Positions 1 through 17,881 of a stretch of DNA of 64,000 nt are shown here, in pieces (position 1 is the first letter of the stretch; each line of letters begins with the position of its first letter). The DNA lies in assembly GCA_965220395.1 (NCBI GenBank), contig CBDCPT010000001.1:1652933-1716932 (forward strand), given 5' to 3'. Made by a program: the position numbers and the translations under genes. The notes under the pieces are model-generated. The model had not been told where the DNA came from, made no database searches, and saw only the letters and a program-made list of their open reading frames with translations. The DNA is from Arenicellales bacterium (GTDB lineage Bacteria; Pseudomonadota; Gammaproteobacteria; Arenicellales; JAJDZL01).

Positions 1-1946
1 GGCGGTTTTCACCAAATGCCAGTGCCTCACTCCACGCCATATTACCCGTTTCCAGTAGCCGCTCATCAAACCGGACGTGCGGTTTTCCCGCATCCGGCTT
101 TCAGACGAAATCATGCCTTCGCCCACGGAAAGCTCGTAGTCGTACTTGCAAGACGAGTCAAGCCGTACTGCTCGTACAGCCGAGCATCGGGAAAAAGCAC
201 GTATTTCCCGCTTCTCACCTTGTGTTTACGACATAGCCACTGACGAAGCCGTCGCATCGTGTGCATATCCACTGCGGTATAGGCTGGCAAAACTTGTCCC
301 AGGTAAAAATAATTCCCCCATCCAGTTAACATCTGGTTGAGGCGCTTTACCATTTGTTCAGATTCCACAGTCCCATAACAACTCGCGGTTTGCTCACTGA
401 TTTTGCGGCATATACCTTGAACGCTCGACTTGCTCGGACGAGTGCCGATGTAAGCGCCTTTTCCGTTGTGTCGATAATTCGTTCCAATACGGTAGCCCAA
501 AAATTCCAAAGCCTCATCCGGACAACGCAAGCATCGGGTCTTTTGCATATTCACTGGCAATTTCAGATGCTCCATGATTCGGGTAAACGCTGACAGCATT
601 TGTGCCGCCGGCGCTTTGCCCAAGATACAGATGTCATCTGCATAATTGACAATCTGTGCCTGAAACTTACGGGCAAAGCCCAATTGTTTCCAACCCAGAA
701 TGAAGCGCCTCATGTAGATATTGCTTATCAGCGGCGAAATTGGACAACCCTGCGGGATGCCCTTACGCTGCTTCTTCGCCCGGTTCGTACGGCGTCTGCC
801 ACCCTTGCCGTCATCCTGTTCTACCGGCATTTCCAGCCACGACTTGATGAGTCCGAGCATTGCGCCATCGCTGATGCGACGCGCCAAACTCTTCATCAGT
901 TCAGCATGGGGAATTTCACCAAAATAGTTGGATAAATCTGCATCTGCCACTTCATGATGCCCGCTGTTCAGCAGCGAATGAACACGAATAACCGCATCAT
1001 TCGCACTCCTGCCCGCCCGATAGGCATATTGCTCCTCGCCCAGATCGGCTTCAAAGATCGGCGATAAAACTAACATCGCCGAGGTTTGCACCACCCGATC
1101 GCGCAAGCAGGGAATGCCCAATGGACGAAACTTGCCTTTCTGTTTCTTCGGAATTAATACCTCTCGCACCGCTCGCGGTGTATAGGTCTTGTCTTTGAGT
1201 TCCCGCGCCAGTTCCCCAAGCCACCTCTCCACGCCATATGCCTCGATGTCGCTGATTGTCTCACCGTCCACGCCAGCTGCACCGCCATTGCGGCGCACCT
1301 GCCGATACGCTTCTGTAAGAAAATCTGCTCGATACAACTTGTCATACAATGCATGAAACCTCAACTCAGGTTCTTCCTTCGCTTTGGCATGTAGTATGCG
1401 CTGTAGCCTCTGAACCTTATCTGACCCTGTTAGATTTATATCAGTTGTCATGTCCTTTCTTCCTTTACATACTGCTTTCGACTCAAGGCTCCTTTCCTAC
1501 ACAGGCATTACCCTGTATCTTCGGTACTACGAGCCTATCCGCCACCCTGACAACCCAGTCTCGTCCTCACGGATTACCGGTTTGGTGTGTGCTGCATCAT
1601 TGTCAGGGCTTCCCGTGTTGCCACTTTACTCATCTTCCATGCGTGCCAGCGCCATTACCCCGACGGAAATACATCGGTGCTCGTATCGCTCACTTCCCCA
1701 TGTATCGTCGGTCTTCTTCCAAATCGCGACAGAATCGACTTCCGCATTAAATGTTTCGAGGCCTGTTCGACGTTCACTCGCGTTCCAGCCCGCATGTTCG
1801 CTGAATTGCCTTACGCAATCCTTCTAGCCAAAGTGCTTCAAACCATTTCGTTACCTCCTTGATCCGCTTTAGCCGCTACCAACCGGAGCGACAGTTGTTG
1901 GGTGGGATTTGCACCCACCAGAGTAAAGCGCCTTTCCACGGCGCAC
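1..1946 (-). mobile_element. Group II intron (ribozyme domains plus intron-encoded protein). The 5' end is at 1946. The 3' boundary is unresolved and lies within the first ~40 nt or beyond the window edge.
   Basis: The minus strand reads GTGCGCC starting at 1946, the typical intron 5' consensus. A domain V-like hairpin on the minus strand at ~66-100 reads AAGCCGGATGCGG-GAAA-ACCGCACGTCCGGTTT and includes the AGC triad. An RT/maturase ORF lies between them. Confidence 0.8.
111..1451 (-). CDS. Group II intron reverse transcriptase/maturase
   Basis: 446-aa ORF. RT motifs include GVDGETI, RPLGIPCLRDRVVQ, GIPQGCPISPLISNIYM and YADD. A C-terminal maturase-like region (GYRIG...LTGWGNYF) follows. Confidence 0.92.
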   Translation of the reverse strand: MTTDINLTGSDKVQRLQRILHAKAKEEPELRFHALYDKLYRADFLTEAYRQVRRNGGAAGVDGETISDIEAYGVERWLGELARELKDKTYTPRAVREVLIPKKQKGKFRPLGIPCLRDRVVQTSAMLVLSPIFEADLGEEQYAYRAGRSANDAVIRVHSLLNSGHHEVADADLSNYFGEIPHAELMKSLARRISDGAMLGLIKSWLEMPVEQDDGKGGRRRTNRAKKQRKGIPQGCPISPLISNIYMRRFILGWKQLGFARKFQAQIVNYADDICILGKAPAAQMLSAFTRIMEHLKLPVNMQKTRCLRCPDEALEFLGYRIGTNYRHNGKGAYIGTRPSKSSVQGICRKISEQTASCYGTVESEQMVKRLNQMLTGWGNYFYLGQVLPAYTAVDMHTMRRLRQWLCRKHKVRSGKYVLFPDARLYEQYGLTRLASTTTSFPWAKA

Positions 1947-3207: not shown

Positions 3208-3432
3208 CTATCGTAATTTGACGAATTCTCTTGTCACCATACCCGCATCCGAAGAAATTTTATGAAGTAAACCAGGTGTTATATCTTGGCCGAAATGCAC
3301 CGGTACGGTAACAATCCGGCCATCGGAATGTCGAAATTGCTTATGCGACCTTTTTTGCCTCACTTCCTCAAAACCCAGTTTGTTCAGTATTCGAATGACT
3401 TCTCTAGGTTTTAATACAGGAATATTTGACAT
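3208..3432 (-). CDS. hicA: HicA-family mRNA interferase toxin
   Basis: 74 aa. The pattern LKPREVIRILNKLGFEEVRQKRSHKQFRH...VTVPVH matches the YcfA/HicA family. Confidence 0.8.
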   Translation of the reverse strand: MSNIPVLKPREVIRILNKLGFEEVRQKRSHKQFRHSDGRIVTVPVHFGQDITPGLLHKISSDAGMVTREFVKLR

Positions 3433-3581
3433 GTGTTACACCTTAATTTGCTCATAAAATGTTCCTATCAAGTAAACGTATGAAACTCCTATTTCCCCTA
3501 TAGCATGCGCGTATAGTGGAAATACTTCTACCAATCAAGGTAGAAGCAGATGATCAATAAAGAAGATGTAAAGATTGAGAA

Positions 3582-3836
3582 TTAAGCGGCCACTTCCAGA
3601 TGATCGGTTTCAACAACAACCGTTTTTGTGCCTACATACTGTGTCTGCATCTCAGGCTCACCATCTTCGAGTAGCATTGTGATGACTTCTTTCATATGCC
3701 GATCTAGTTCGTCGATTGTTTTTCCTTGACTGTATGCACCTGGAAAACTAGGCACACTTCCAATATACAGACCTGTCTCCAAGCATCGCTCGATGATGAT
3801 TGTGTAAGTTTGTGTTGCGTTTTTTTCCCTTGACAT
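3582..3836 (-). CDS. hicB: HicB-family antitoxin (N-terminal fold only, no obvious DNA-binding domain)
   Basis: 84 aa. YTIIIERCLETGLYIGSVPSFPGAYSQGKTIDELDRHMKEVI matches the UPF0150/HicB pattern. It lies upstream of hicA, separated by a 150-bp spacer containing a hairpin. Confidence 0.7.
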   Translation of the reverse strand: MSREKNATQTYTIIIERCLETGLYIGSVPSFPGAYSQGKTIDELDRHMKEVITMLLEDGEPEMQTQYVGTKTVVVETDHLEVAA

Positions 3837-4286
3837 TTCTTTTCCTACAGATTCAGCTTAAATTCGGGGATTCCTTTGAATTTTGCGTAGACCCCTAGTC
3901 ATATCTAACATACATTTTAACGCAACCGGTGACCAGTATGGATGGGAAACCAGAGAATTCGCCGTAGTTTGGTGGAATAGAAAATCGTGTTGCCAATCAC
4001 TGGGCTCTGGCAACGGAAGTTACAACGTTACATCAGTTTTCGGATATCGAACGAACAATTGATTGCTAGAAATGTTGTTATTGAAAATCCGCTCTTGCCG
4101 AAAGAATTTCTTCCGAAAATCGTTGTATTGTATTTTTCATCTCTACTGCATTTAATGCATCAAGCAATACAACACCCCCGTAAATATTTGGGAATTACAT
4201 ACTTGTGTACATTTTTATTCGCATTACCATCAATAATAATGTACAATACTACCATAAATCAATAACACATTTCTAGATTGAAACTT

Positions 4287-5234
4287 ATGACTAGCAAAGG
4301 AAAGGGACCAGGTAAATACAACCGAAAAGGCATTAGCCTAATCGAAGCCGTTCAAAAGTTCGGAGACGAAGAAACAGCAGAGAAATGGTTTGTAGAACGT
4401 CGCTGGTCAAACGGAATCATCTGTCCAAAGTGCAATAGTGATAAGATCAAACCAAGAAGAACTGCTAGAAAAACTCCTGTGTATCACTGTAATTCCTGTA
4501 AATTCGATTTTACAGTAAAGACTGGAACCATAATGCACGACTCCAAGCTGCCCTTGAGTAAATGGGCTTTGGCATTCTATCTGTATTCAACTAACTTGAA
4601 AGGTGTGTCCAGCATGAAACTGCATCGTGATCTAGGTATCACTCAAAAGTCTGCATGGCACTTGGCACATCGAATCAGAGAGACTTGGAACGATGAAACA
4701 CAGAAACTGTCAGGCACAGTAGAAGTGGATGAAACCTATATGGGTGGTTTGGAAAGGAACAAGCACAACGATAAGAAACTCAAATCAGGTAGGGGTGCAG
4801 TAGGCAAGACTGCCGTTATTGGAGTCAAGGAAAGAGAATCAAAGAAAGTCAAAGCGGAAGTTATAGAAAATACGAAACGACCAACACTTCATGGATTCAT
4901 TGATAAGAACATTGAAGCTGGTTCAGCAGTCTATACGGATGATTTCAAGAGTTACGAAAAACTTGATGGGTATGAACACAGTACCGTAAAACACAGCGTA
5001 GGACAATACGTAGACGAACAAATCCATATCAATGGCATGGAGTCGTTCTGGTCTATGCTGAAACGGGCACATAAGGGAACTTACCATAAAATGTCAAAGA
5101 AACACCTAACTAGGTATTTACAGGAATTTGCTGGCAGGCACAATATCCGTGAACAGGATACCATCAACCAGATGCAACATATCGTTGCTAGTATGATTGG
5201 GAAGAGATTGAGATATTCAGAACTAGTGAAGTGA
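4287..5234 (+). CDS. IS1595-family (ISXO2-like) transposase, apparently intact
   Basis: N-terminal zinc ribbon (CPKCNS...YHCNSCKFDF), then LKGVSSMKLHRDLGITQKSAWHLAHRIR and VEVDETYMGG, with a DDE-type C-terminal half. ATG 4287 aligns with the start of the second copy. Confidence 0.9.
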   Translation: MTSKGKGPGKYNRKGISLIEAVQKFGDEETAEKWFVERRWSNGIICPKCNSDKIKPRRTARKTPVYHCNSCKFDFTVKTGTIMHDSKLPLSKWALAFYLYSTNLKGVSSMKLHRDLGITQKSAWHLAHRIRETWNDETQKLSGTVEVDETYMGGLERNKHNDKKLKSGRGAVGKTAVIGVKERESKKVKAEVIENTKRPTLHGFIDKNIEAGSAVYTDDFKSYEKLDGYEHSTVKHSVGQYVDEQIHINGMESFWSMLKRAHKGTYHKMSKKHLTRYLQEFAGRHNIREQDTINQMQHIVASMIGKRLRYSELVK

Positions 5235-5636
5235 ATGGAGGTCTACATAAAGCTAAATGGGCATTCTGATGCTGGTAAGAAACCAGCTTGGCAGGCTGCA
5301 TCGATAATCAGTGCAAACTCAACAATCATTCATACCATAAACACGGCTATACCGATTCTAAGAATATAGTCAATGGTTTTATAGAGGTTACTTTTCCTTT
5401 TCATAATCTATCACCTTTCCGTCACATGCCAGCACGCCAGAATAAATAATCTAGCACGACATTAAAGTAAGGAAAAAGGATAAAGAAAATGATGAAAAAA
5501 AGTATCAACGAGATTATTTTCACCCATTTAGGGTATCCTGGATTGTCCAAATTCAGAACTCGTGACATAGTCAGGATTGATATGCGACAATTGGCCTTTC
5601 GTAGACCATTCTCAAATCAGTTCCGGGGTAAATTGT

Positions 5637-5936
5637 TCACTGTAGAGTCGCACACTCGCATAGATCATGCAACGCTTTATTGAAGCGTGGCTGAGCCATG
5701 CAGTGAAAGCGTACCACCAGTCGTTTGCGTTGTCTACACGGCAGCAGGCCAATCGCCATGCGCTGCCCATAATCATCGGATTCAAGATACGACAGCATCA
5801 CGCCACTGGCGTTGTGAATCGCCACGCGGCCGTTTTCGCATACCTTGGCGCAGCGCTCGTTGATGAATTCGGCATGTTCCGGGAGGAAGTTCAGGCACGA
5901 TTGAAGCATGGCATAGGTTCGGCTTTGGAGAGACAA
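5637..5936 (-). CDS. Hypothetical protein or gene fragment in a locally GC-rich patch; function unknown
   Basis: 99-aa ORF with protein-like composition (FLPEHAEFINERCAKV...). An overlapping opposite-strand ORF looks less protein-like. No family was recognised. Confidence 0.3.
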   Translation of the reverse strand: MSLQSRTYAMLQSCLNFLPEHAEFINERCAKVCENGRVAIHNASGVMLSYLESDDYGQRMAIGLLPCRQRKRLVVRFHCMAQPRFNKALHDLCECATLQ

Positions 5937-6093
5937 TCGCCGTTATTCGATTTATGCCACATTTTTCCAAAAAAAGCAGGCCGAACCGCATGTTTATTGA
6001 TATTCTCTTCACCTATGTCACGTGTTCTGAAGTTAGGTTTGGAAGGTTCCTCTTTCTCTTTTATTTTCTCCAACAATCTTGCTAGCTCGGCAT

Positions 6094-6205
6094 GGGTGCC
6101 GGGCTATTGCAAACATCTTGAAAAAAGAAATCCTTGCCTATTCACCTTGACGGTTGTTATATTTGGCAAGTAACCCGACCTGCGGGAATTTCAAAATGTT
6201 TGCAG
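6094..6205 (+). repeat. Conserved ~110-bp internal module of the IS1595 cargo elements (copy 1), bounded by 17-bp inverted arms
   Basis: Near-identical to the reverse complement of 14727-14839. The arms TTGCAAACATCTTGAAA (6107-6123) and TTTCAAAATGTTTGCAG (6189-6205) are inverted. The module contains TTGCCT, a 17-nt spacer, then TTATAT (6134-6162). Confidence 0.85.
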
Positions 6206-6314
6206 TAAAGATTCGATACCAGTTGTATTTCACTTGTAAACAAATATTCACTAAATGATCTACAATGAATTTTCATAGCAAAAAGTAAAGACGATTTCAC
6301 AAGAAGGACTAGAT

Positions 6315-6638
6315 ATGAAGAAGACTGGTGCAGTTGGCATTAAAGGCACAATCACATGGCATGTGTTTCAAAGTGAACATGGTAATTGGATTGGAATTTG
6401 TGACACTCTAGGGTTAACAATGGAGGGTCCTACTATTGACGAATTGAATCTCAATATTCAAGATGCAGTGCAGTCAATTCTTAATCGACTTTTGAAAAAA
6501 GGAGAACTGGAGAAATTCTTTAGTGATCGTGGATGGGGTTCACAGCAATACGCAATGGAGAACGATATAGGAGCAAGTGTCCCAATTGATCTTTTAGTGC
6601 ATTCAAATTATGCCTATTCCACGTCAGCAGTTCATTAA
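6315..6638 (+). CDS. HicB-like / DUF1902-like antitoxin candidate (IS cargo)
   Basis: 107 aa. WIGICDTLGLTMEGPTIDELNLNIQDAVQSIL resembles the HicB/UPF0150 N-terminal fold. It overlaps the next ORF by 29 nt. Confidence 0.5.
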   Translation: MKKTGAVGIKGTITWHVFQSEHGNWIGICDTLGLTMEGPTIDELNLNIQDAVQSILNRLLKKGELEKFFSDRGWGSQQYAMENDIGASVPIDLLVHSNYAYSTSAVH

Positions 6639-6834
6639 GTCTTTAAGAGAACTAGGCTACAAATTCGACCATCAAGCAAAGCGGACTTTTGTCTATAGGA
6701 AAATTGGTGGCACTCATCATGTGGCAGTTCCCCAACAGGAGTTACTGGATGAACGTAATATTCATTCTATTTTGAGACAGTGCGGATGCACTGATTCCAA
6801 AATCAGAGAGATTATGGAATCACTCCATGAATAA
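6610..6834 (+). CDS. HicA-like small protein (IS cargo); the canonical G-S-H catalytic motif is not evident
   Basis: 74 aa. FIKSLRELGYKFDH...HHVAVPQQELLDERNIHSILRQCG parallels the HicA layout. Confidence 0.45.
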   Translation: MPIPRQQFIKSLRELGYKFDHQAKRTFVYRKIGGTHHVAVPQQELLDERNIHSILRQCGCTDSKIREIMESLHE

Positions 6835-6877
6835 CTCTACACGCCAAGCAACGTGATAATCAAACAGAGAGGTTGAA

Positions 6878-7024
6878 ATGTCAAAGAAACCCAAAAGAGG
6901 CAGACCCATAACAAAACCCCTCCCAGAACGAATCAACGCCTCTCCAGAAACAATAGCTGAAGTGGTGTTGCGAGCCAAGCCAAAGAAGTCATGGGACTAC
7001 ATGAAAAAACAGGAATCACAATAG
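6878..7024 (+). CDS. Small basic protein (48 aa) at the distal end of IS element 1
   Basis: ATG preceded by AGAGAGG. Sequence MSKKPKRGRPITKPLPERINASPETIAEVVLRAKPKK.... It is the positional and weak sequence counterpart of 14505-14657. Confidence 0.45.
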   Translation: MSKKPKRGRPITKPLPERINASPETIAEVVLRAKPKKSWDYMKKQESQ

Positions 7025-7111
7025 GGGATTTAGTACACAAGTATGTAATTCCAAAAATTTAGATTACCTCCGAGCCAAATCCTCATACTGATAAAATTGA
7101 GTGCATGAAAT

Positions 7112-12888: not shown

Positions 12889-13308
12889 CCCTATTCTCCA
12901 GACGAATAATTTTCATATTGACAGCTTGATTCGTGCAAACTGATGTTTTTACTATAGTCCAGTAGTCTTATTATTACACGAAACCCTTTCGCTATCTGCA
13001 ATTTGCACGCAAACCGGCCACTGTACGAGTCCACTGAAGATGATCAATCCTGTTTCCGAATTCTCCCCTGCCGCAGGGAATACAACCTACTTTCATTGCC
13101 TGAACAAATTAGATAGTGTATACAATCAATATTGGTGGCTGGGTTAAAGCGACAGACGAACCTTGTCCACTGCTTTCACAAGAAATTTTGACTCTTTGCT
13201 CGAACTATCTGTTCTTGTAGACATTTCTTCACACTTGTACTGTAAGTGCAAAGCCGGTTGTAATTGGAACAGACACCTGAATTACGCACACTAGAATTTC
13301 GTGGCTGC

Positions 13309-14145
13309 ATGGCAAACTTAAAATTGAAAATCAACGATCCCGTACGCTTCTATAGTCAACGTGGTCTGGAAAAAGGATTTATCGCATCAGTCTATGGTAC
13401 TAAAGCGACAGTAGTTGCCGAGGACGGCGCCGAATTCGACGTGCCGGTTCTCATACTCAAACCAAGGGAAGGTGTCAAGCCCAAGCGGGTGTATACACAC
13501 AATCAGATGCAACGAACGAAATTCAGTATCGGCGATTCCGTTTTCTTTTGTTCATCGAATGGAAAAATTAACAATGGCACAATTACTCGCATGAATCCCA
13601 AACGCGCACGACTGGAATGTGCGGGAGAAACTTGGGATGTGCCGTACGAAATGCTTGAAAAAGAAACACCTGACCAGCTGGGCATTGAAAATATGCAACA
13701 GCTGGATACAGTAGCCCAGCAAGCAGACGAACTGCTACAGAAGCATCAGCTCACCGACTGGCGATTCACTTATGATGATGCAACGAAGAGAGGTGGAGTC
13801 TGTTTGTACACAGACAAGACAATTAGCATTTCACAGCAATTCTGTCTTAGAGCGGATGAAGTCGAAATCACTGATACGCTATTGCATGAAATTGCACATG
13901 CACTAGTCGGTCCCAATCACGGGCACGACGCCGTCTGGAAGGCCAAAGCGCTGGAGATTGGATGTAGTGGCAACCGAACGCACAATATCCACTTTACACC
14001 ACCAAAATATATTGTTTCCTGTTTCCAGTGCGACTGGCATATCGGACGTGAGAAACGCTCAAGAGGACTTGTCTGCAAACATTGTGGACAGAATGTCACA
14101 TTTGAGCACTATACAAAGGACTTGTGGAATTCGTATCGACTGTAG
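13309..14145 (+). CDS. SprT-like zinc metalloprotease-domain protein with two N-terminal ~50-aa repeats and a C-terminal zinc ribbon
   Basis: LLHEIAHALVGPNHGHDAVW (HExxH) and CFQCDW...CKHCG. ATG 13309 is preferred over the upstream TTG at 13264. Confidence 0.65.
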   Translation: MANLKLKINDPVRFYSQRGLEKGFIASVYGTKATVVAEDGAEFDVPVLILKPREGVKPKRVYTHNQMQRTKFSIGDSVFFCSSNGKINNGTITRMNPKRARLECAGETWDVPYEMLEKETPDQLGIENMQQLDTVAQQADELLQKHQLTDWRFTYDDATKRGGVCLYTDKTISISQQFCLRADEVEITDTLLHEIAHALVGPNHGHDAVWKAKALEIGCSGNRTHNIHFTPPKYIVSCFQCDWHIGREKRSRGLVCKHCGQNVTFEHYTKDLWNSYRL

Positions 14146-14284
14146 ACGGCAACTGCAATTCCGCCACAACTGAAAAATGGGCTTGACTCCAAGCGGTTGA
14201 AGGATTGTCAATGCGCCGGCTTCATTCAAAATTTGGGAATTATATACAATAGTCACAAAACCCTGCCGAATCCGCCTATAATCC

Positions 14285-14316
14285 AAAAAGTGAAGGGGAG
14301 TTATTCACTCCCCTTC
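14285..14316 (-). terminator. Rho-independent terminator-like hairpin between the IS end and the tRNA
   Basis: A 9-bp perfect stem GAAGGGGAG/CTCCCCTTC (14292-14316) with a 7-nt loop. On the minus strand it is followed by CTTTTTGG. Confidence 0.5.
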
Positions 14317-14325
14317 GATAATATT

Positions 14326-14419
14326 GGGCTTGTAGCGGAACGGTATACGCAGGACACTCGGAATGTCCCACTTAGTTGCACAAACAACTAGGTTGTGGGT
14401 TCGAATCCCACCAAGCCTA
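14326..14419 (+). tRNA. Type-II (long variable arm) tRNA with anticodon CGG (Pro codon CCG). Leu-like D arm, A73, no encoded CCA.
   Basis: Manual fold. Acceptor GGGCTTG/CAAGCCT with G1-U72. D arm GCG-GAACGGTATA-CGC. Anticodon arm GGACA-CTCGGAA-TGTCC. 26-nt variable region with an 8-bp stem. T arm GTGGG-TTCGAAT-CCCAC. Discriminator A. Confidence 0.75.
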
Positions 14420-14504
14420 CACCCATTCCGTCATACCGACAAGAAAGACGGACAGTCCAACATTAAACGGTTTCTTGTGTTACAGAATTTTAACACAAGG
14501 ATAT

Positions 14505-14657
14505 TCATTTCTGCGTATTGACGACAACAGGTTGGACTGCTGCTTTTGCAAGTTGCTCAGGTGTAGTCGGGATGTGTATTTTTTCTCTCAATTCAGAGCG
14601 GGACGGCTGGTAAGATTTCGGCTTGACCTTCACAACCGAATCTTTTGAGTGTTTCAT
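14505..14657 (-). CDS. Small basic protein (50 aa) at the distal end of IS element 2
   Basis: ATG 14657 is preceded by GGAG. Sequence MKHSKDSVVKVKPKSYQPSRSELREKIHIPTTPEQLAKAAV.... It occupies the same relative position as 6878-7024 in element 1. Confidence 0.45.
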   Translation of the reverse strand: MKHSKDSVVKVKPKSYQPSRSELREKIHIPTTPEQLAKAAVQPVVVNTQK

Positions 14658-14726
14658 ATTGCTAATCTCCAATTTAGTTGTTGTCGTTGGATTATACAAA
14701 AATAGACAAATATAGTAGAATTCTTA

Positions 14727-14839
14727 TTGCAAACATTTTGAAATCCCCGTAGGTCGGGTTACTTGCCGAATATAACAGCCGTCAAGGTGAATAGGCAAGG
14801 ATTTCTTTTTTTCAAGATATTTGCAACTGCCCGGCACCC
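14727..14839 (-). repeat. Conserved ~110-bp internal module of the IS1595 cargo elements (copy 2)
   Basis: The reverse complement is near-identical to 6094-6205. The inverted arms are TTGCAAACATTTTGAAA (14727-14743) and TTTCAAGATATTTGCAA (14810-14826). Confidence 0.85.
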
Positions 14840-14874
14840 TTTTTACCGAGTCGCAACAACTTGAAGAGAAATCT

Positions 14875-15315
14875 ATGAAGTGCCTGATTATTTTATGCTT
14901 TGTCGGTTTGGTGGCGTTACTGCCACATGTAACTCTCGCCCAGTTTTTTGTGGAAGTCACACCTGAAGAATATGAACAAATGTCGGAGGAGGAACAGGAG
15001 ACATATCGATACAATTTCAAGCAGCACTTTTACAGAATGGAAAGGATAAAAACTGAGGAGGAAATGGAGTACTGGACCGAAGAACAAAAGAAGGCTTGGA
15101 AGACGTTTCAACAAGAGTTATATGGAGGACTTACAATTCAAGAATTAGCGTTTGAGATCCAATATGAAATGCTCGAAAGGTGCAGGCGCATACTTCTTAA
15201 AAATCTAATTGCTATTCGGGCAAATGATAAAGCGAAACAGAAGGAGACGATGGACGATTACTTTCTGTATTCTTGCAGTGAAACAATAGATAGAGCCAGT
15301 GCAACAGAGGATTAA
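14875..15315 (+). CDS. Hypothetical secreted acidic protein (IS cargo)
   Basis: Signal-peptide-like MKCLIILCFVGLVALLPHVTLAQ followed by a Glu-rich helical sequence. No family was recognised. Confidence 0.5.
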   Translation: MKCLIILCFVGLVALLPHVTLAQFFVEVTPEEYEQMSEEEQETYRYNFKQHFYRMERIKTEEEMEYWTEEQKKAWKTFQQELYGGLTIQELAFEIQYEMLERCRRILLKNLIAIRANDKAKQKETMDDYFLYSCSETIDRASATED

Positions 15316-15327
15316 GATGCAGGTAAT

Positions 15328-15975
15328 TTATTGCGCTTCTTGGGGGTTCTGTCCTTTGTCCCACAGAGTCGGGTCTTTCGGCTGACTCTTCCCCGGGTAG
15401 TCCAGTAGGATGTACTGTACTTGTTCCCTCAGGCCGTCGTGGTTTATCGTCTTGTAATACTCCTGCAGTCTCATCGCTGCGTCCACCTGTTCCTTCACGA
15501 ACAGTTCCAGTTCCTGCTGTGCTCTCAATTTCTCCAGCAGTTTCGGGCTTTGTTCCCTCATCGTCTCCAGTAACATCTCCCTCATCGTGCTCTCGGTCAT
15601 CCAGAACGCCCCGCAATCTATCGCTTTCGGTTTCTTTTGCTGCTTCTTCATCGGATTTTGGGACAGAAGCTCGTCCAGTTCCGCAAGCCTTCTCTGAAGG
15701 TGGCGCCAATCCTTCAATGTTTGTGCAAGCTCTTCTCTGGAAGGAAAGGGGCGATCCTTTTCAAGACCCATCGCACCCGGAACTGAAAGTACAGTAAATT
15801 CATCGGAGTTGTCAGAAAAACTGAATCCATCCGTATCTCTTATTGAAAATGAGGCCTGTTCAAGTGTTGTTTTGTAGCGTTCCAGTTTGTTCTTAGTGCA
15901 GACGAGGCTATTCTTGATCTCACGGCGCTCTTGCACCATCAAGCCGAGTTCTACTTGTTCTTGGGTTGCGTTCAT
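15328..15975 (-). CDS. Hypothetical coiled-coil protein (IS cargo)
   Basis: 215-aa ORF with heptad-like charged helical segments. It is co-directional with the transposase. No family was recognised. Confidence 0.5.
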   Translation of the reverse strand: MNATQEQVELGLMVQERREIKNSLVCTKNKLERYKTTLEQASFSIRDTDGFSFSDNSDEFTVLSVPGAMGLEKDRPFPSREELAQTLKDWRHLQRRLAELDELLSQNPMKKQQKKPKAIDCGAFWMTESTMREMLLETMREQSPKLLEKLRAQQELELFVKEQVDAAMRLQEYYKTINHDGLREQVQYILLDYPGKSQPKDPTLWDKGQNPQEAQ

Positions 15976-16033
15976 TGAGAAATACCTATCGGAATCATAT
16001 AGGAATGCTGGTTCCCGTTTATAGAGCCAAACT

Positions 16034-17188
16034 TCATTTCACCAGTTCCGAATACTTCAATCGCTTTCCGACCATTCCAGATGCAACACGTTGTAGCTGA
16101 TTGGCTGTATCTTGTTCGCGGATGTTATTCCGTCCAGCAAATTCCTGGACATACCGCCCTAAATGCTTCTTGGACATTTTATGGTATGTGCCTTTGTGCG
16201 CTCGTTTGAGCATTGCCCAGAAACTCTCGATTCCGTTGATATGCGCCTGTTCTTTCACATACTCGCCAACTGAGTGTTTGACCGAATCGTGATCGAAGTC
16301 TGTCAGCTTCTCATAACTCTTGAAGTCGTCTGTATAGACAGTTGAGCCAGGATCAATGTTTTCATCAATGAAGCCGTGCAGTGTCGGACGCTTTGTATTT
16401 TCGATCACTTTTGCCTTGATCTGCTTGGTCTCTCGCTCCTTTGCGCCGATAACAGTAGTCTTTCCAACTCCACCGCGTCCGGCGTTCAGTTTCTTGTCAG
16501 CGTGCTTGTTCTTCTCCAATCCGCCTATATAGTGTCTGCCAGAAAACGTTTAACACATTGATAATAATGATTAATCATGTCATTCTATAAAGTGAAGATT
16601 TTGCTGGTTTGTGGTATTTGGCAACGAAATTCGCCTTTGAACCCGTTAATCCGCCAAAACCGAAATTTCTTCGTTTGAAAATATCGGATGATTGTTCTTT
16701 ATTATCAATGTGATGTAGAGTTTTCTGACGAACACTATATAGGTTTCGTCTACTTCGATTGTGCCATCAAATTTAATGGATTGAGATTCAAAGGTTTTTC
16801 GTAGACGATGAGCCAAGTGCCAAGCTGATTTTTGAGTGATACCCAAATCTCGATGAAGTTTCATACTGGACACACCCTTGAGATTTGTAGTCAACAGGTA
16901 AATTGCAATCGCCCAAACCTGATAGTTCAGATTTGACCCTTCCATTACCGTACCTGTTTTTAGCGAAAACATCTTCCTGTCTTCGCAATTCCTACAGCGA
17001 TGCGTCATCGTTTTGTGTTTGATATTGGACTGCACATTGTCAGAATTGCAATATGGACAATGCGCGCCATCAGGCCATCGGTGTTCTTCGAACCATTGTC
17101 GAGCAACCTCATTGCTCGAAAACTTGTTCATCAGTTCGATTAAAGTGATACCCTTTCGGTGAGATTTGCCTGGGGCTTTTTGAGTCAT
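16034..17188 (-). pseudogene. IS1595-family transposase split by a ~200-bp insertion
   Basis: The N-terminal part (17188 down to ~16743) ends ...IEVDETYI. The C-terminal part resumes GGLEKNKHADKK... (16524 down to 16034). Both halves align with the intact copy at 4287-5234. Confidence 0.9.
16525..16742. mobile_element. MITE-like non-autonomous insertion (about 202 bp plus a duplicated CTATATAG)
   Basis: The ends TGTCTGCCAGAAAAC (16533-16547) and GTTTTCTGACGAACA (16720-16734) are inverted, matching 12/15. CTATATAG occurs at both junctions (16525-16532 and 16735-16742). There is no ORF inside. Confidence 0.75.
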
Positions 17189-17327
17189 CTTTAGTTACCA
17201 TCCATTTTTGAAATTGTGACTAAAGTATAAACTATCAATTAGGTAATGTCAAGGGTTTTGTGACTATTGTATATAATTCCCCAAAATTTATATGGATTTT
17301 CAACTCCTTGGTTTATTCGGATGCTCA

Positions 17328-17363
17328 CAAAAAAGCCAGGCGACATAGCCACCTGGCTTTTTC
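17328..17363 (-). terminator. Rho-independent terminator downstream of fae (sequence is symmetric, so potentially bidirectional)
   Basis: AAAAAAGCCAGG-cgacatagcca-CCTGGCTTTTT is a GC stem flanked by an A-run and a T-run. Confidence 0.7.
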
Positions 17364-17377
17364 CAAGGAAACATGAA

Positions 17378-17881
17378 TTAGTCTGCTCCGAACGGGTGCG
17401 CTATACCCTTTTGAGCAATGACTTCTTGAGCATTAGGATGACCTGTGACAGCTCGACGAATCGCCTCACGTGTCGCCTCGTAGTTGTACTCCTGGATCTT
17501 ACTGTCATTTTCGGCATCCCAATGAATGAAAACACCAACACAAATGAACAGATCATCTGCTTCATCCGCTGGAATAGTGCCATCTTCAACGCTGTCGATG
17601 ACTGCCAATGACACAGCACGTTGGGCAGGGCCAAACATTTGCACCGCCTGTTTCGCGCCTTTCATGGTTACTTTATTGAACATGACAGTGTTTGGCTTCG
17701 CGGGAATATTGGGCGAAGCAACAGCCAGCAAGCTGGTAAAGCCGTCTTTGTTGTTGCACAGAGAATTACAAAACGCTGCTTCCACAGCAGACCCACGTGG
17801 TCCTATTAGCAAGTCAATGTGTGCAACTTCATTGCCTTCTCCAACTAATGATTCTCCGACCCTTACATTGTCAATCGCCAT
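17378..17881 (-). CDS. fae: Formaldehyde-activating enzyme
   Basis: 167 aa. [24 protein letters not shown]...MFNKVT...VGVFIHW closely follows the Fae sequences of methylotrophs, from memory. Confidence 0.9.

Follow-up and report, generated by a model that had tools for sequence, protein, structure and literature searches.

The spacer between a SprT-like gene and fae in an Arenicellales bacterium encloses, within one pair of inverted repeats, a transposase gene, a tRNA gene whose anticodon does not suit its body, and several protein genes, which raises the question of whether all of these belong to a single mobile element and, if so, which of them form its machinery and which are freight. We addressed this question in a 64,000-nucleotide stretch of contig CBDCPT010000001.1 (assembly GCA_965220395.1, positions 1,652,933 to 1,716,932 of the forward strand), which is called the window below and supplies all coordinates unless another locus is named. 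Judging from its sequence and from that of its relatives, we consider it very probable that 14235-17281 constitutes one transposable unit, namely an IS1595-family transporter insertion sequence (transporter IS, tIS) whose ends are of the GGGAATTAT type.

This unit of 3,047 bp starts with a 30-nt terminal inverted repeat (IR) distal to the transposase (IR-L, 14235-14264, plus strand, GGGAATTATATACAATAGTCACAAAACCCT), which is the perfect reverse complement of the transposase-proximal repeat (IR-R, 17252-17281, minus strand; 30 of 30 positions), and the likeness between the left and right ends of the element stops at base 30. The 8-bp sequence CAAAATTT directly abuts both repeats, at 14227-14234 and again at 17282-17289, and the DNA outside this target-site duplication reads GCCGGCTTCATT before and ATATGGATTTTCAAC after it. 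When up to three mismatches were allowed, the 30-mer had no third site in the 64 kb, IR-L being unique in the window apart from IR-R, and none of 100 shuffles gave a match. Ends of this type occur only four times in the window, two of them on this element and the other two on a second element at 4190-7053, and none lies between the transposase and the cargo. A preliminary description of the locus, made from the sequence without database searches, had reported the perfect repeats with their duplication and had considered the possibility of a second repeat beside the transposase; the former were confirmed by exact matching, the latter was searched for in vain, and all the contents that had been listed were found at or near the positions assigned to them.

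A profile built from the two transposases of the window yielded nine loci from GTDB genomes, and three of these nine are long IR-bounded units with exact 8-bp duplications, i.e., a 5.25-kb unit from Chloroflexota (L001; duplication GATTCAGG), a 3.25-kb unit from Ca. Poriferihabitans (L002; ATTTCTTG), whose IR is almost identical to that of the studied element, and a 2.87-kb unit, also from Chloroflexota (L004; CTTGAAAT). Two further relatives were found via homologues of the cargo: L012, whose duplication agrees in 7 of 8 positions and in which the same cassette of leader and acidic-protein gene is found at 80% nucleotide identity, and L013, a 4.26-kb element with the same IR as the studied one and the duplication ATTAATTT. 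L013 lies at a different genomic site, has an intact transposase without insert, and shares the segment composed of IR, hairpin, tRNA gene and small open reading frame (ORF) at 89% nucleotide identity; over L013, L016, L017 and L019 the identity of this segment to that of the studied element is 83-92%, and the IR-L sequence itself recurs in L013, L017 and L019. Order, orientation and ends of the architecture recur in independent contigs of other samples. A metagenome scan for the IR returned a single decayed relative, and scans of viral contigs for the IR, the tRNA body or the leader returned nothing. The same backbone with other cargo at another site, flanked by its own duplication, bears out the preliminary reading of a passenger-carrying transposon and agrees with the concept of a tIS, whose passengers lie between the IRs and are moved as a unit with them.

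Most members of the IS1595 family are about 1 kb long, and the preliminary description had taken this size and a single gene as normal; the statement holds for plain members, while carriage of passengers is already known in the family. The tIS concept was established for IS1595 (Siguier, Gagnevin & Chandler 2009, as cited in passages of PMC7986276, PMC11891212 and bioRxiv 10.1101/2021.05.26.445724), and ISNha5 and the passenger-carrying members of the ISNwi1/ISPna2 groups are examples. The studied element resembles these in its single IS1595-type DDE transposase with an N-terminal zinc ribbon, its short IRs, the 8-bp duplication, the passengers inside the IRs and the kilobase size. It differs from described tIS in that a gene for a small basic protein is kept at the far end of the backbone and in that its cargo is led by an RNA leader with covariation support, and its sublineage further differs in possessing a class-II-shaped tRNA gene with changing anticodons. 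Our literature searches found neither the small backbone gene, nor the tRNA, nor the leader described for tIS, and those for IS-borne tRNAs with variable anticodons gave nothing specific.

Two alternatives to movement as a whole were weighed against this reading. It is highly improbable that the element is an assembly artefact, with repeats collapsed or misjoined in a metagenome-assembled genome (MAG): the source is apparently an environmental genome, and the two related elements of the window share a 91-93% identical module that could mislead assemblers, but an independent Logan assembly matches 14751-16169 at 100%, the architecture recurs in contigs assembled from other samples, and a chimeric join would not yield a matching 8-bp duplication. 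Even less probable, and already contradicted, is that the left repeat is the solo end of another IS copy, so that a plain 1.1-kb IS1595 would lie beside host DNA (a host tRNA gene and its neighbours) and the 3-kb unit would never have moved whole, a view favoured by the usual size of IS1595 members and by the usually chromosomal location of tRNA genes but opposed by the identical duplication at the outer ends, by the absence of IR-like sequence between transposase and cargo among the four ends in the window, and by the occurrence of the same segment of IR, hairpin, tRNA and small ORF on the same IS at other sites in L013, L016, L017 and L019. Some points nevertheless weigh against the reading as a single tIS of this group. 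Both junctions are backed by one assembly, the independent Logan contig (L011) spanning 14751-16169 only; the 64 kb shows no second exact copy of the element and no compatible intact transposase beyond a 66%-identical one at 4278-5234; and the assignment to the ISNwi1 subgroup of IS1595, whose ISfinder consensus ggnnatTAT the GGGAATTAT ends fit, is tentative.

The transposase gene is on the minus strand and is interrupted. Its C-terminal part (16034-16532) matches DDE_Tnp_IS1595 (PF12762, 16034-16519, E = 6.5e-36), and its N-terminal part (16743-17188), which comprises the zinc ribbon and extends up to the DETY motif, matches PF12760 (16646-17188, E = 6.3e-8), so that the DDE domain and N-terminal zinc ribbon of the IS1595 family are found on the two halves. 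Between them lies a 210-bp insertion (16533-16742) consisting of a 202-bp body and one copy of the 8-bp CTATATAG, the two copies of which flank the body at 16525-16532 and 16735-16742. The insertion has terminal inverted repeats of about 35 nt (TGTYYGYCAGAAAAC...CACATTGATAATAA), is 34% GC, folds on itself and carries no ORF of its own, and in being short, non-coding, bounded by terminal repeats and flanked by a duplication it has the structure of a miniature inverted-repeat transposable element (MITE); the term MITE-like is used here as a description of structure only. Removal of the 210 bp restores an uninterrupted, in-frame ORF of 314 aa, reading ...EVDETYIGGLEKNKH..., which shares 66% identity with the intact transposase of 318 aa at 4278-5234 (NCBIfam NF033547, IS1595, 195.6 bits) and 78% with a copy in an Arenicellales MAG. 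The L013 transposase, from another metagenome and 89-95% identical at the nucleotide level, lacks the insertion precisely at the 8-mer and thus represents the empty site. Neither the 64-kb window nor any of 27 fetched loci contained a second copy of the insertion. Both the IS1595 assignment and the inactivation of the transposase by a MITE-like insertion, as previously proposed, are upheld by these results. Since the transposase has this single lesion, it is a fair inference that the present copy would now be movable only with a compatible transposase supplied in trans, and its ends would presumably still serve such an enzyme. The predicted transposase promoter (TTGACA-17-TATACT, 11/12, 17214-17252, minus strand) has a -35 box that begins at the inner edge of IR-R and a -10 box that overlaps a subterminal copy of the IR core (17214-17229), and the same subterminal repeat is present in L013 and L002.

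At the opposite end of the element, a gene for a small basic protein of 50 aa (isoelectric point, pI, 10.1) is located at 14505-14657 on the minus strand and reads toward the transposase-distal IR. Its L013 homologue is 96% identical. A profile search returned 47 homologous clusters at 90% identity, and every context that was fetched was arranged in the order transposase, cargo, small ORF, IR; an exhaustive HMM search extended the family to 732 clusters at 50% identity, with lengths of 50-100 aa in almost all cases. All elements examined have a homologous small ORF directly beside the transposase-distal IR, and it is read outward. Two forms can be aligned via a central motif, one of the type KPKRGRP...P(E)xI(D/N)A(S/T)PEEIA..VV..PKK in the second element of the window, L001, L004 and L010, and the other of the type ...SYQPS(R/K)xELxExIxI..TPEQLAKAxVQPV in the studied element, L013 and L002. 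No match to the 50-aa protein was found in Pfam, NCBIfam, PADLOC or PHROG. On its recurrent position, the ORF is to be regarded as a conserved second backbone gene and not as incidental cargo. Most of the duplicated targets are rich in AT (CAAAATTT, ATTAATTT and AAAATTTA), and one of the two forms contains an AT-hook-type RGRP motif. We infer that the protein may have an accessory role at the element end, such as binding of DNA or of the end itself, or in the choice of target. A minus-strand hairpin resembling an intrinsic terminator (14292-14316, 10 bp, 6 of them GC, with a T-run) is kept in L013, L016 and L017 with changes in the loop only, and the transcript of the small ORF would probably cross the tRNA gene in antisense before ending at this hairpin (14316-14292).

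The tRNA gene itself (14326-14420, plus strand, 95 nt) is predicted by ARAGORN as Pro-CGG and reaches 54.4 bits with the Rfam tRNA model, against a threshold of 29. Its product is of class-II shape, with acceptor and T stems of 7 and 5 bp, a 3-bp D stem, a 9-bp variable-arm stem, A73 and a G1:U72 pair; the minimum free energy fold is the cloverleaf (z = -3.8), the anticodon loop is CUCGGAA (CGG), and the 3' CCA is not encoded (...CCUA-CAC). Downstream at 14472-14501 lies a weak plus-strand terminator-like hairpin of 11 pairs, 3 of which are GC. A 7/5 cloverleaf that exceeds the Rfam threshold is in keeping with a canonical tRNA, but the class of the body does not fit the anticodon, as tRNAs for Pro, Glu and Asp belong to class I with a short variable loop, and the 9-bp variable-arm stem is here combined with CGG and in relatives with CUC or GUC. 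The loop reads GUCUCAU (CUC, Glu) in L013 and CUGUCAU (GUC, Asp) in L016, L017 and L019, so that five copies share one class-II body and exhibit three anticodons. Over all copies, 98% of the cloverleaf is paired, and compensatory changes occur at two pairs: in the anticodon stem G:C is replaced by C:G (30:40), and in the variable stem U:A by C:G (48:66). Variable columns make up 5 of 7 in the anticodon loop compared with 16 of 90 elsewhere (Fisher p = 0.005), and 6 of the 8 differences between the studied tRNA and its nearest relative, that of L017, fall within the 17-nt anticodon arm. U33, A37, U8, A14, G18G19 and the TTCGAAT T-loop are invariant.

The tRNA gene, like the small ORF, is on this evidence a part of the backbone of the sublineage and not variable cargo. 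The preliminary description had counted four passenger loci, and this count needs to be revised: the cassette of leader and acidic-protein gene and the helical-protein gene do vary between elements, whereas the 50-aa ORF occupies the same position in every relative context fetched and the tRNA gene is common to the sublineage represented by L013, L016, L017 and L019.

Our working view is that the tRNA is a folded RNA that appears to be kept by selection. The pattern is that of a maintained tRNA fold whose anticodon would have been changed by selection or by patch conversion, and not that of a decaying relic. Most probably the tRNA takes part in decoding, with an identity that would be given by the body and not by the anticodon. 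LeuRS and SerRS do not read anticodons, and the D arm (GCGGAA...ACGC) together with A73 looks Leu-like and not Ser-like in a crude comparison with class-II tRNAs, which is suggestive only. It is quite possible, although we put it short of an even chance, that the tRNA decodes with a non-cognate amino acid; that it is charged according to its anticodon is doubtful. We further propose, tentatively, a working class-II tRNA whose identity would be fixed by the body (A73, the Leu-like D arm and the long variable arm) and whose anticodon would be free to change (GUC, CUC, CGG), so that the elements would spread sense-codon missense suppressors with an anticodon under diversifying selection. If this proposal is true, each element would cause one amino acid to be inserted at codons for Asp, Glu or Pro.

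Long-armed tRNAs with non-cognate anticodons do exist in the form of allo-tRNAs, which can mistranslate, are sometimes located near transposon or toxin-antitoxin genes, and in some cases act as missense or nonsense suppressors in Escherichia coli (Mukai et al. 2017, PMC5389517). The studied tRNA is similar to them in its long arm, its non-cognate anticodon and its proximity to transposon genes. In contrast to the 8/4 or 9/3 acceptor/T stems of allo-tRNAs (PMC5389517), however, it has a standard 7-bp acceptor and 5-bp T stem, and it further differs in its A73 discriminator, in a D arm that in the crude comparison above is Leu-like and not Ser-like, and in being an integral part of a DDE transposon. 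Phages and integrative elements likewise are mobile elements bearing tRNA genes, but the bodies of their tRNAs match the anticodons, and the presumed function of these tRNAs is to supply codons or to replace cleaved host tRNAs, whereas the tRNAs studied here combine a class-II body with Pro, Glu or Asp anticodons and show no link to codon usage. A supply of codons favoured by the element genes was examined and found no support, CCG accounting for 11 of 22 Pro codons in the element and 51 of 169 in the host (p = 0.09) and L013 showing no enrichment of GAG. In BLAST comparisons with E. coli, phage and plasmid records, the tRNA matched in the generic T arm only, and weak Rfam sroE matches over the hairpin/tRNA region were sub-threshold and are accounted for by the hairpin. 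In a Proteobacteria MAG (L006), a 98-nt tRNA-SeC (TCA) gene was observed at 4236-4333 of that locus; a distantly related IS1595 transposase (35% identity) follows about 1.7 kb downstream.

A number of observations speak against a role in decoding or limit the support for it. The census comprises four distinct tRNA sequences, several of them from low-coverage metagenome contigs and possibly from related hosts; no sigma-70-type promoter was found 5' of the tRNA; a strong terminator lies beyond it on the minus strand; and the codon usage of the element genes does not follow the anticodons. In addition, lineages with the RGRP-type small ORF leave no room for a tRNA, and L014 and L015 carry a short, weakly tRNA-like sequence where the tRNA sits. 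The latter loci belong to a sister lineage (IR GGGGATTATATACAATAGTCAC), in which a shorter tRNA-like fold was seen at the tRNA position (L015, 5713-5781 of that locus, minus strand); the fold comprises an acceptor stem GCGGGUG/CACCCGC and a T arm and reaches about 21 bits with the tRNA-Sec and mascRNA models, and the L014 copy is truncated.

These observations bear on two other explanations. The first is that the tRNA-shaped RNA does not decode and instead has a regulatory or protective function, either as a cis-antisense partner of the small-ORF mRNA or as a decoy for host nucleases that target tRNAs. The convergent layout with its strong minus-strand terminator, the shorter tRNA-like fold at the same place in L015, and the suggestion that allo-tRNAs with odd anticodons serve transposons or toxin-antitoxin loci and not translation (PMC5389517) are in its favour. 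A cis-antisense function, however, does not account for the accumulation of changes in the anticodon loop with U33, A37 and all features of the canonical L-shape kept, and for a decoy there is no direct evidence of a nuclease or toxin partner, PADLOC having given no hits. We regard this explanation as questionable, and the same holds for a non-translational role as tRNA mimic or antisense RNA in general. The second explanation, that the tRNA is a functionless relic captured from a host and decaying, with anticodon differences due to neutral drift or small gene-conversion patches, would reduce the element to an ordinary tIS with junk. It is consistent with the lack of a detectable promoter, with a T-stem bulge in L013 and a T-stem mismatch in L017 and L019, with the replacement or loss of the tRNA in L014 and L015, with the codon usage, and with the small number of distinct sequences. 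Yet pairing is preserved in all five helices, two of the changes being compensatory, against a divergence of 8-17% in the flanks; the changes cluster in the anticodon loop but spare U33 and A37; and the bases for tertiary interactions (U8, A14, G18G19 and the T-loop) are intact. A relic is therefore unlikely, and we retain the view of a maintained tRNA that most probably takes part in decoding.

Between the backbone ends lies the cargo, one part of which is led by a structured module (14718-14843, plus strand) upstream of the acidic-protein gene. The 110-bp conserved module of the preliminary description corresponds to this sequence, which is indeed repeated and can now be described further as a structured leader that has its own -10 box and stands upstream of varied cargo. 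A promoter-like site, TATACA-17-TAGAAT, is located at 14693-14721 (plus strand), and the TAGAAT box is present in all copies of the module. One of these, at 6094-6214 in the second element of the window, is 91-93% identical; as the two transposases share only 66% of their amino acids, this suggests an exchange of modules between elements. In total, the leader was found in eight elements (the two in the window and L012, L013, L014, L017, L018 and L019) with differing cargo ORFs, and in each case such an ORF follows it on the same strand at a distance of 30-120 nt. According to RNAalifold, inner helices are enclosed by an outer stem of 16 bp (TTGCAAACAT.../...ATGTTTGCAA), in which approximately 14728-14744 pairs with 14810-14826. 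In the alignment, 93% of the cells are paired and eight pairs show compensatory changes, e.g., CUUGCC/GGCAAG versus CCCGUG/CAUGGG, in a set of sequences that forms about three groups and hence represents few independent covariation events. Eight of 500 shuffles attained this number of compensatory pairs, none of 500 attained the pairing or covariation score, and slid controls collapsed.

The only Rfam family that the leader resembles, and weakly so, is sRNA-Xcc1 (RF02221), which both copies in the window match over the full length of the model with scores of 32.7 bits (14753-14843) and 36.5 bits (6090-6179), below the gathering threshold of 53. sRNA-Xcc1 is an RNA borne by integron cassettes, transposons and plasmids and found upstream of symE in Xanthomonas. 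Both are structured RNAs of mobile elements, about 90-125 nt in length and directly followed, on the same strand, by a cargo or toxin gene, whereas the leader differs in an additional 16-bp outer stem that crosses the P1 helix of the Rfam model and in that the genes 3' of it are not symE. At 14728-14839, and likewise at 6094-6205, the arms of the outer stem and of P1 (GUCGGG/CCCGGC) interleave in the order outer 5', P1 5', outer 3', P1 3', and the two helices would form either a pseudoknot or mutually exclusive, switch-like folds; P1 is invariant, and covariation cannot separate these two arrangements. We read the module as a portable unit of promoter and structured 5' leader for cargo genes, analogous to sRNA-Xcc1 and not a demonstrated member of that family; the module may act as a cis-regulator of cargo expression.

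The gene led by the module (14875-15315, plus strand) encodes an acidic protein of 146 aa (pI 4.8) with an N-terminus that looks by eye like a signal peptide, and a 72% identical homologue follows the same leader inside the IS1595 element of L012. The other cargo gene (15328-15975, minus strand) encodes a 215-aa protein with three long predicted helices, and a partial homologue (P0002, 69% identity) resides inside the L013 element. AlphaFold models of both are all-helical and of low confidence, with a predicted local distance difference test score (pLDDT) of 52 for the acidic protein (AF2) and of 61 for the helical one. Each of the two proteins has a handful of homologues, all within IS1595 elements, and neither has a significant match in Pfam, NCBIfam, PADLOC or PHROGs; weak matches of the helical protein to IS110 and TPR_NAA35 were far below the cut-offs and were dismissed. 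In the related elements L002, L003, L015, L016 and L020-L022, a DNA methyltransferase is a recurrent cargo between the transposase and the small ORF, often fused to or beside an HNH nuclease domain (PF01555 with PF01844). Furthermore, among the nearest relatives, an ORF of 76-81 aa without family match was observed to begin at or just past the transposase stop in L013 (5704-5934), L014 (3754-3999), L015 (1868-2107), L018 (963-1202) and L019 (739-978), in coordinates of the respective loci; it overlaps the stop codon in L014, L015, L018 and L019 and is absent from the studied element.

The element is inserted in the spacer where the SprT-like gene (13264-14145) and fae (17378-17881) converge, and breaks neither of them. 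The neighbourhood includes a CitG-like gene and, upstream, genes of pterin and tetrahydromethanopterin (H4MPT) type (flavoprotein, DUF6513, DUF447, HPPK with pterin-binding domain, and pterin-4a dehydratase), which agrees with the previously proposed location in a C1-metabolism cluster. A bidirectional terminator-like hairpin (AAAAAAGCCAGG...CCTGGCTTTTT, 17333-17365) was noticed directly past the fae stop codon; as the element landed beyond this hairpin, the termination of fae should be unaffected.

The second cargo-carrying IS1595 element of the window (4190-7053) has an IR GGGAATTACATACTTGTGTAC, a right tip TGGAATT and ends GGGAATTACATAC..., and is flanked by AAATATTT and AAAAATTT, which agree in 7 of 8 positions. 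Besides the intact transposase (4278-5234, plus strand) it contains the leader copy (6090-6214, minus strand), a DUF1902/HicB-like ORF (6315-6638), a weakly HicA-toxin-like ORF (6610-6834) and a small RGRP-motif ORF (6878-7024) that abuts its IR-R. Directly to its left, at 3208-3836 on the minus strand, a pair of genes for a canonical HicA (PF07927, E = 2.5e-19) and a HicB-like protein was observed. RNA domains of a group II intron were also detected on the minus strand, namely RF02003 with 77.6 bits and a truncated RF00029 at the edge of the window (1-102, 1778-1920).

Taken as a model, the IS1595 DDE transposase would bind the terminal repeats of 30 nt and, probably, the subterminal repeat overlapping the promoter of its gene as well, and would move all DNA between the repeats while duplicating 8 bp of AT-rich target. 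The fixed backbone would consist of the transposase at one end and, at the other, the small basic gene, the convergent class-II-shaped tRNA gene and the terminator hairpin, and would enclose a variable cargo bay, which here appears to hold the helical gene and the cassette of promoter, structured leader and acidic, exported-looking protein. The 202-bp MITE-like element would then have landed in the transposase at the DETY motif after the insertion of the whole.

An IS1595 element with passengers is in itself one more member of a class described in 2009. New in its anatomy are the two-gene backbone, the reusable cassette of promoter and leader, and, in this sublineage, a tRNA whose anticodon switches between copies. 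We surmise that the main interest lies in this transposon-borne, anticodon-switching class-II tRNA, and that second to it come the family of unannotated small proteins and the structured leader of the cargo. With its 732 clusters that carry no annotation, the small protein is a candidate for a new accessory transposition factor, and the leader is a candidate for a new RNA family. If the tRNA is charged and used, it would represent a natural and horizontally mobile alteration of sense-codon reading, and would extend the natural mistranslating tRNAs, such as allo-tRNAs and those of the tRNAProX type, to DDE transposons.

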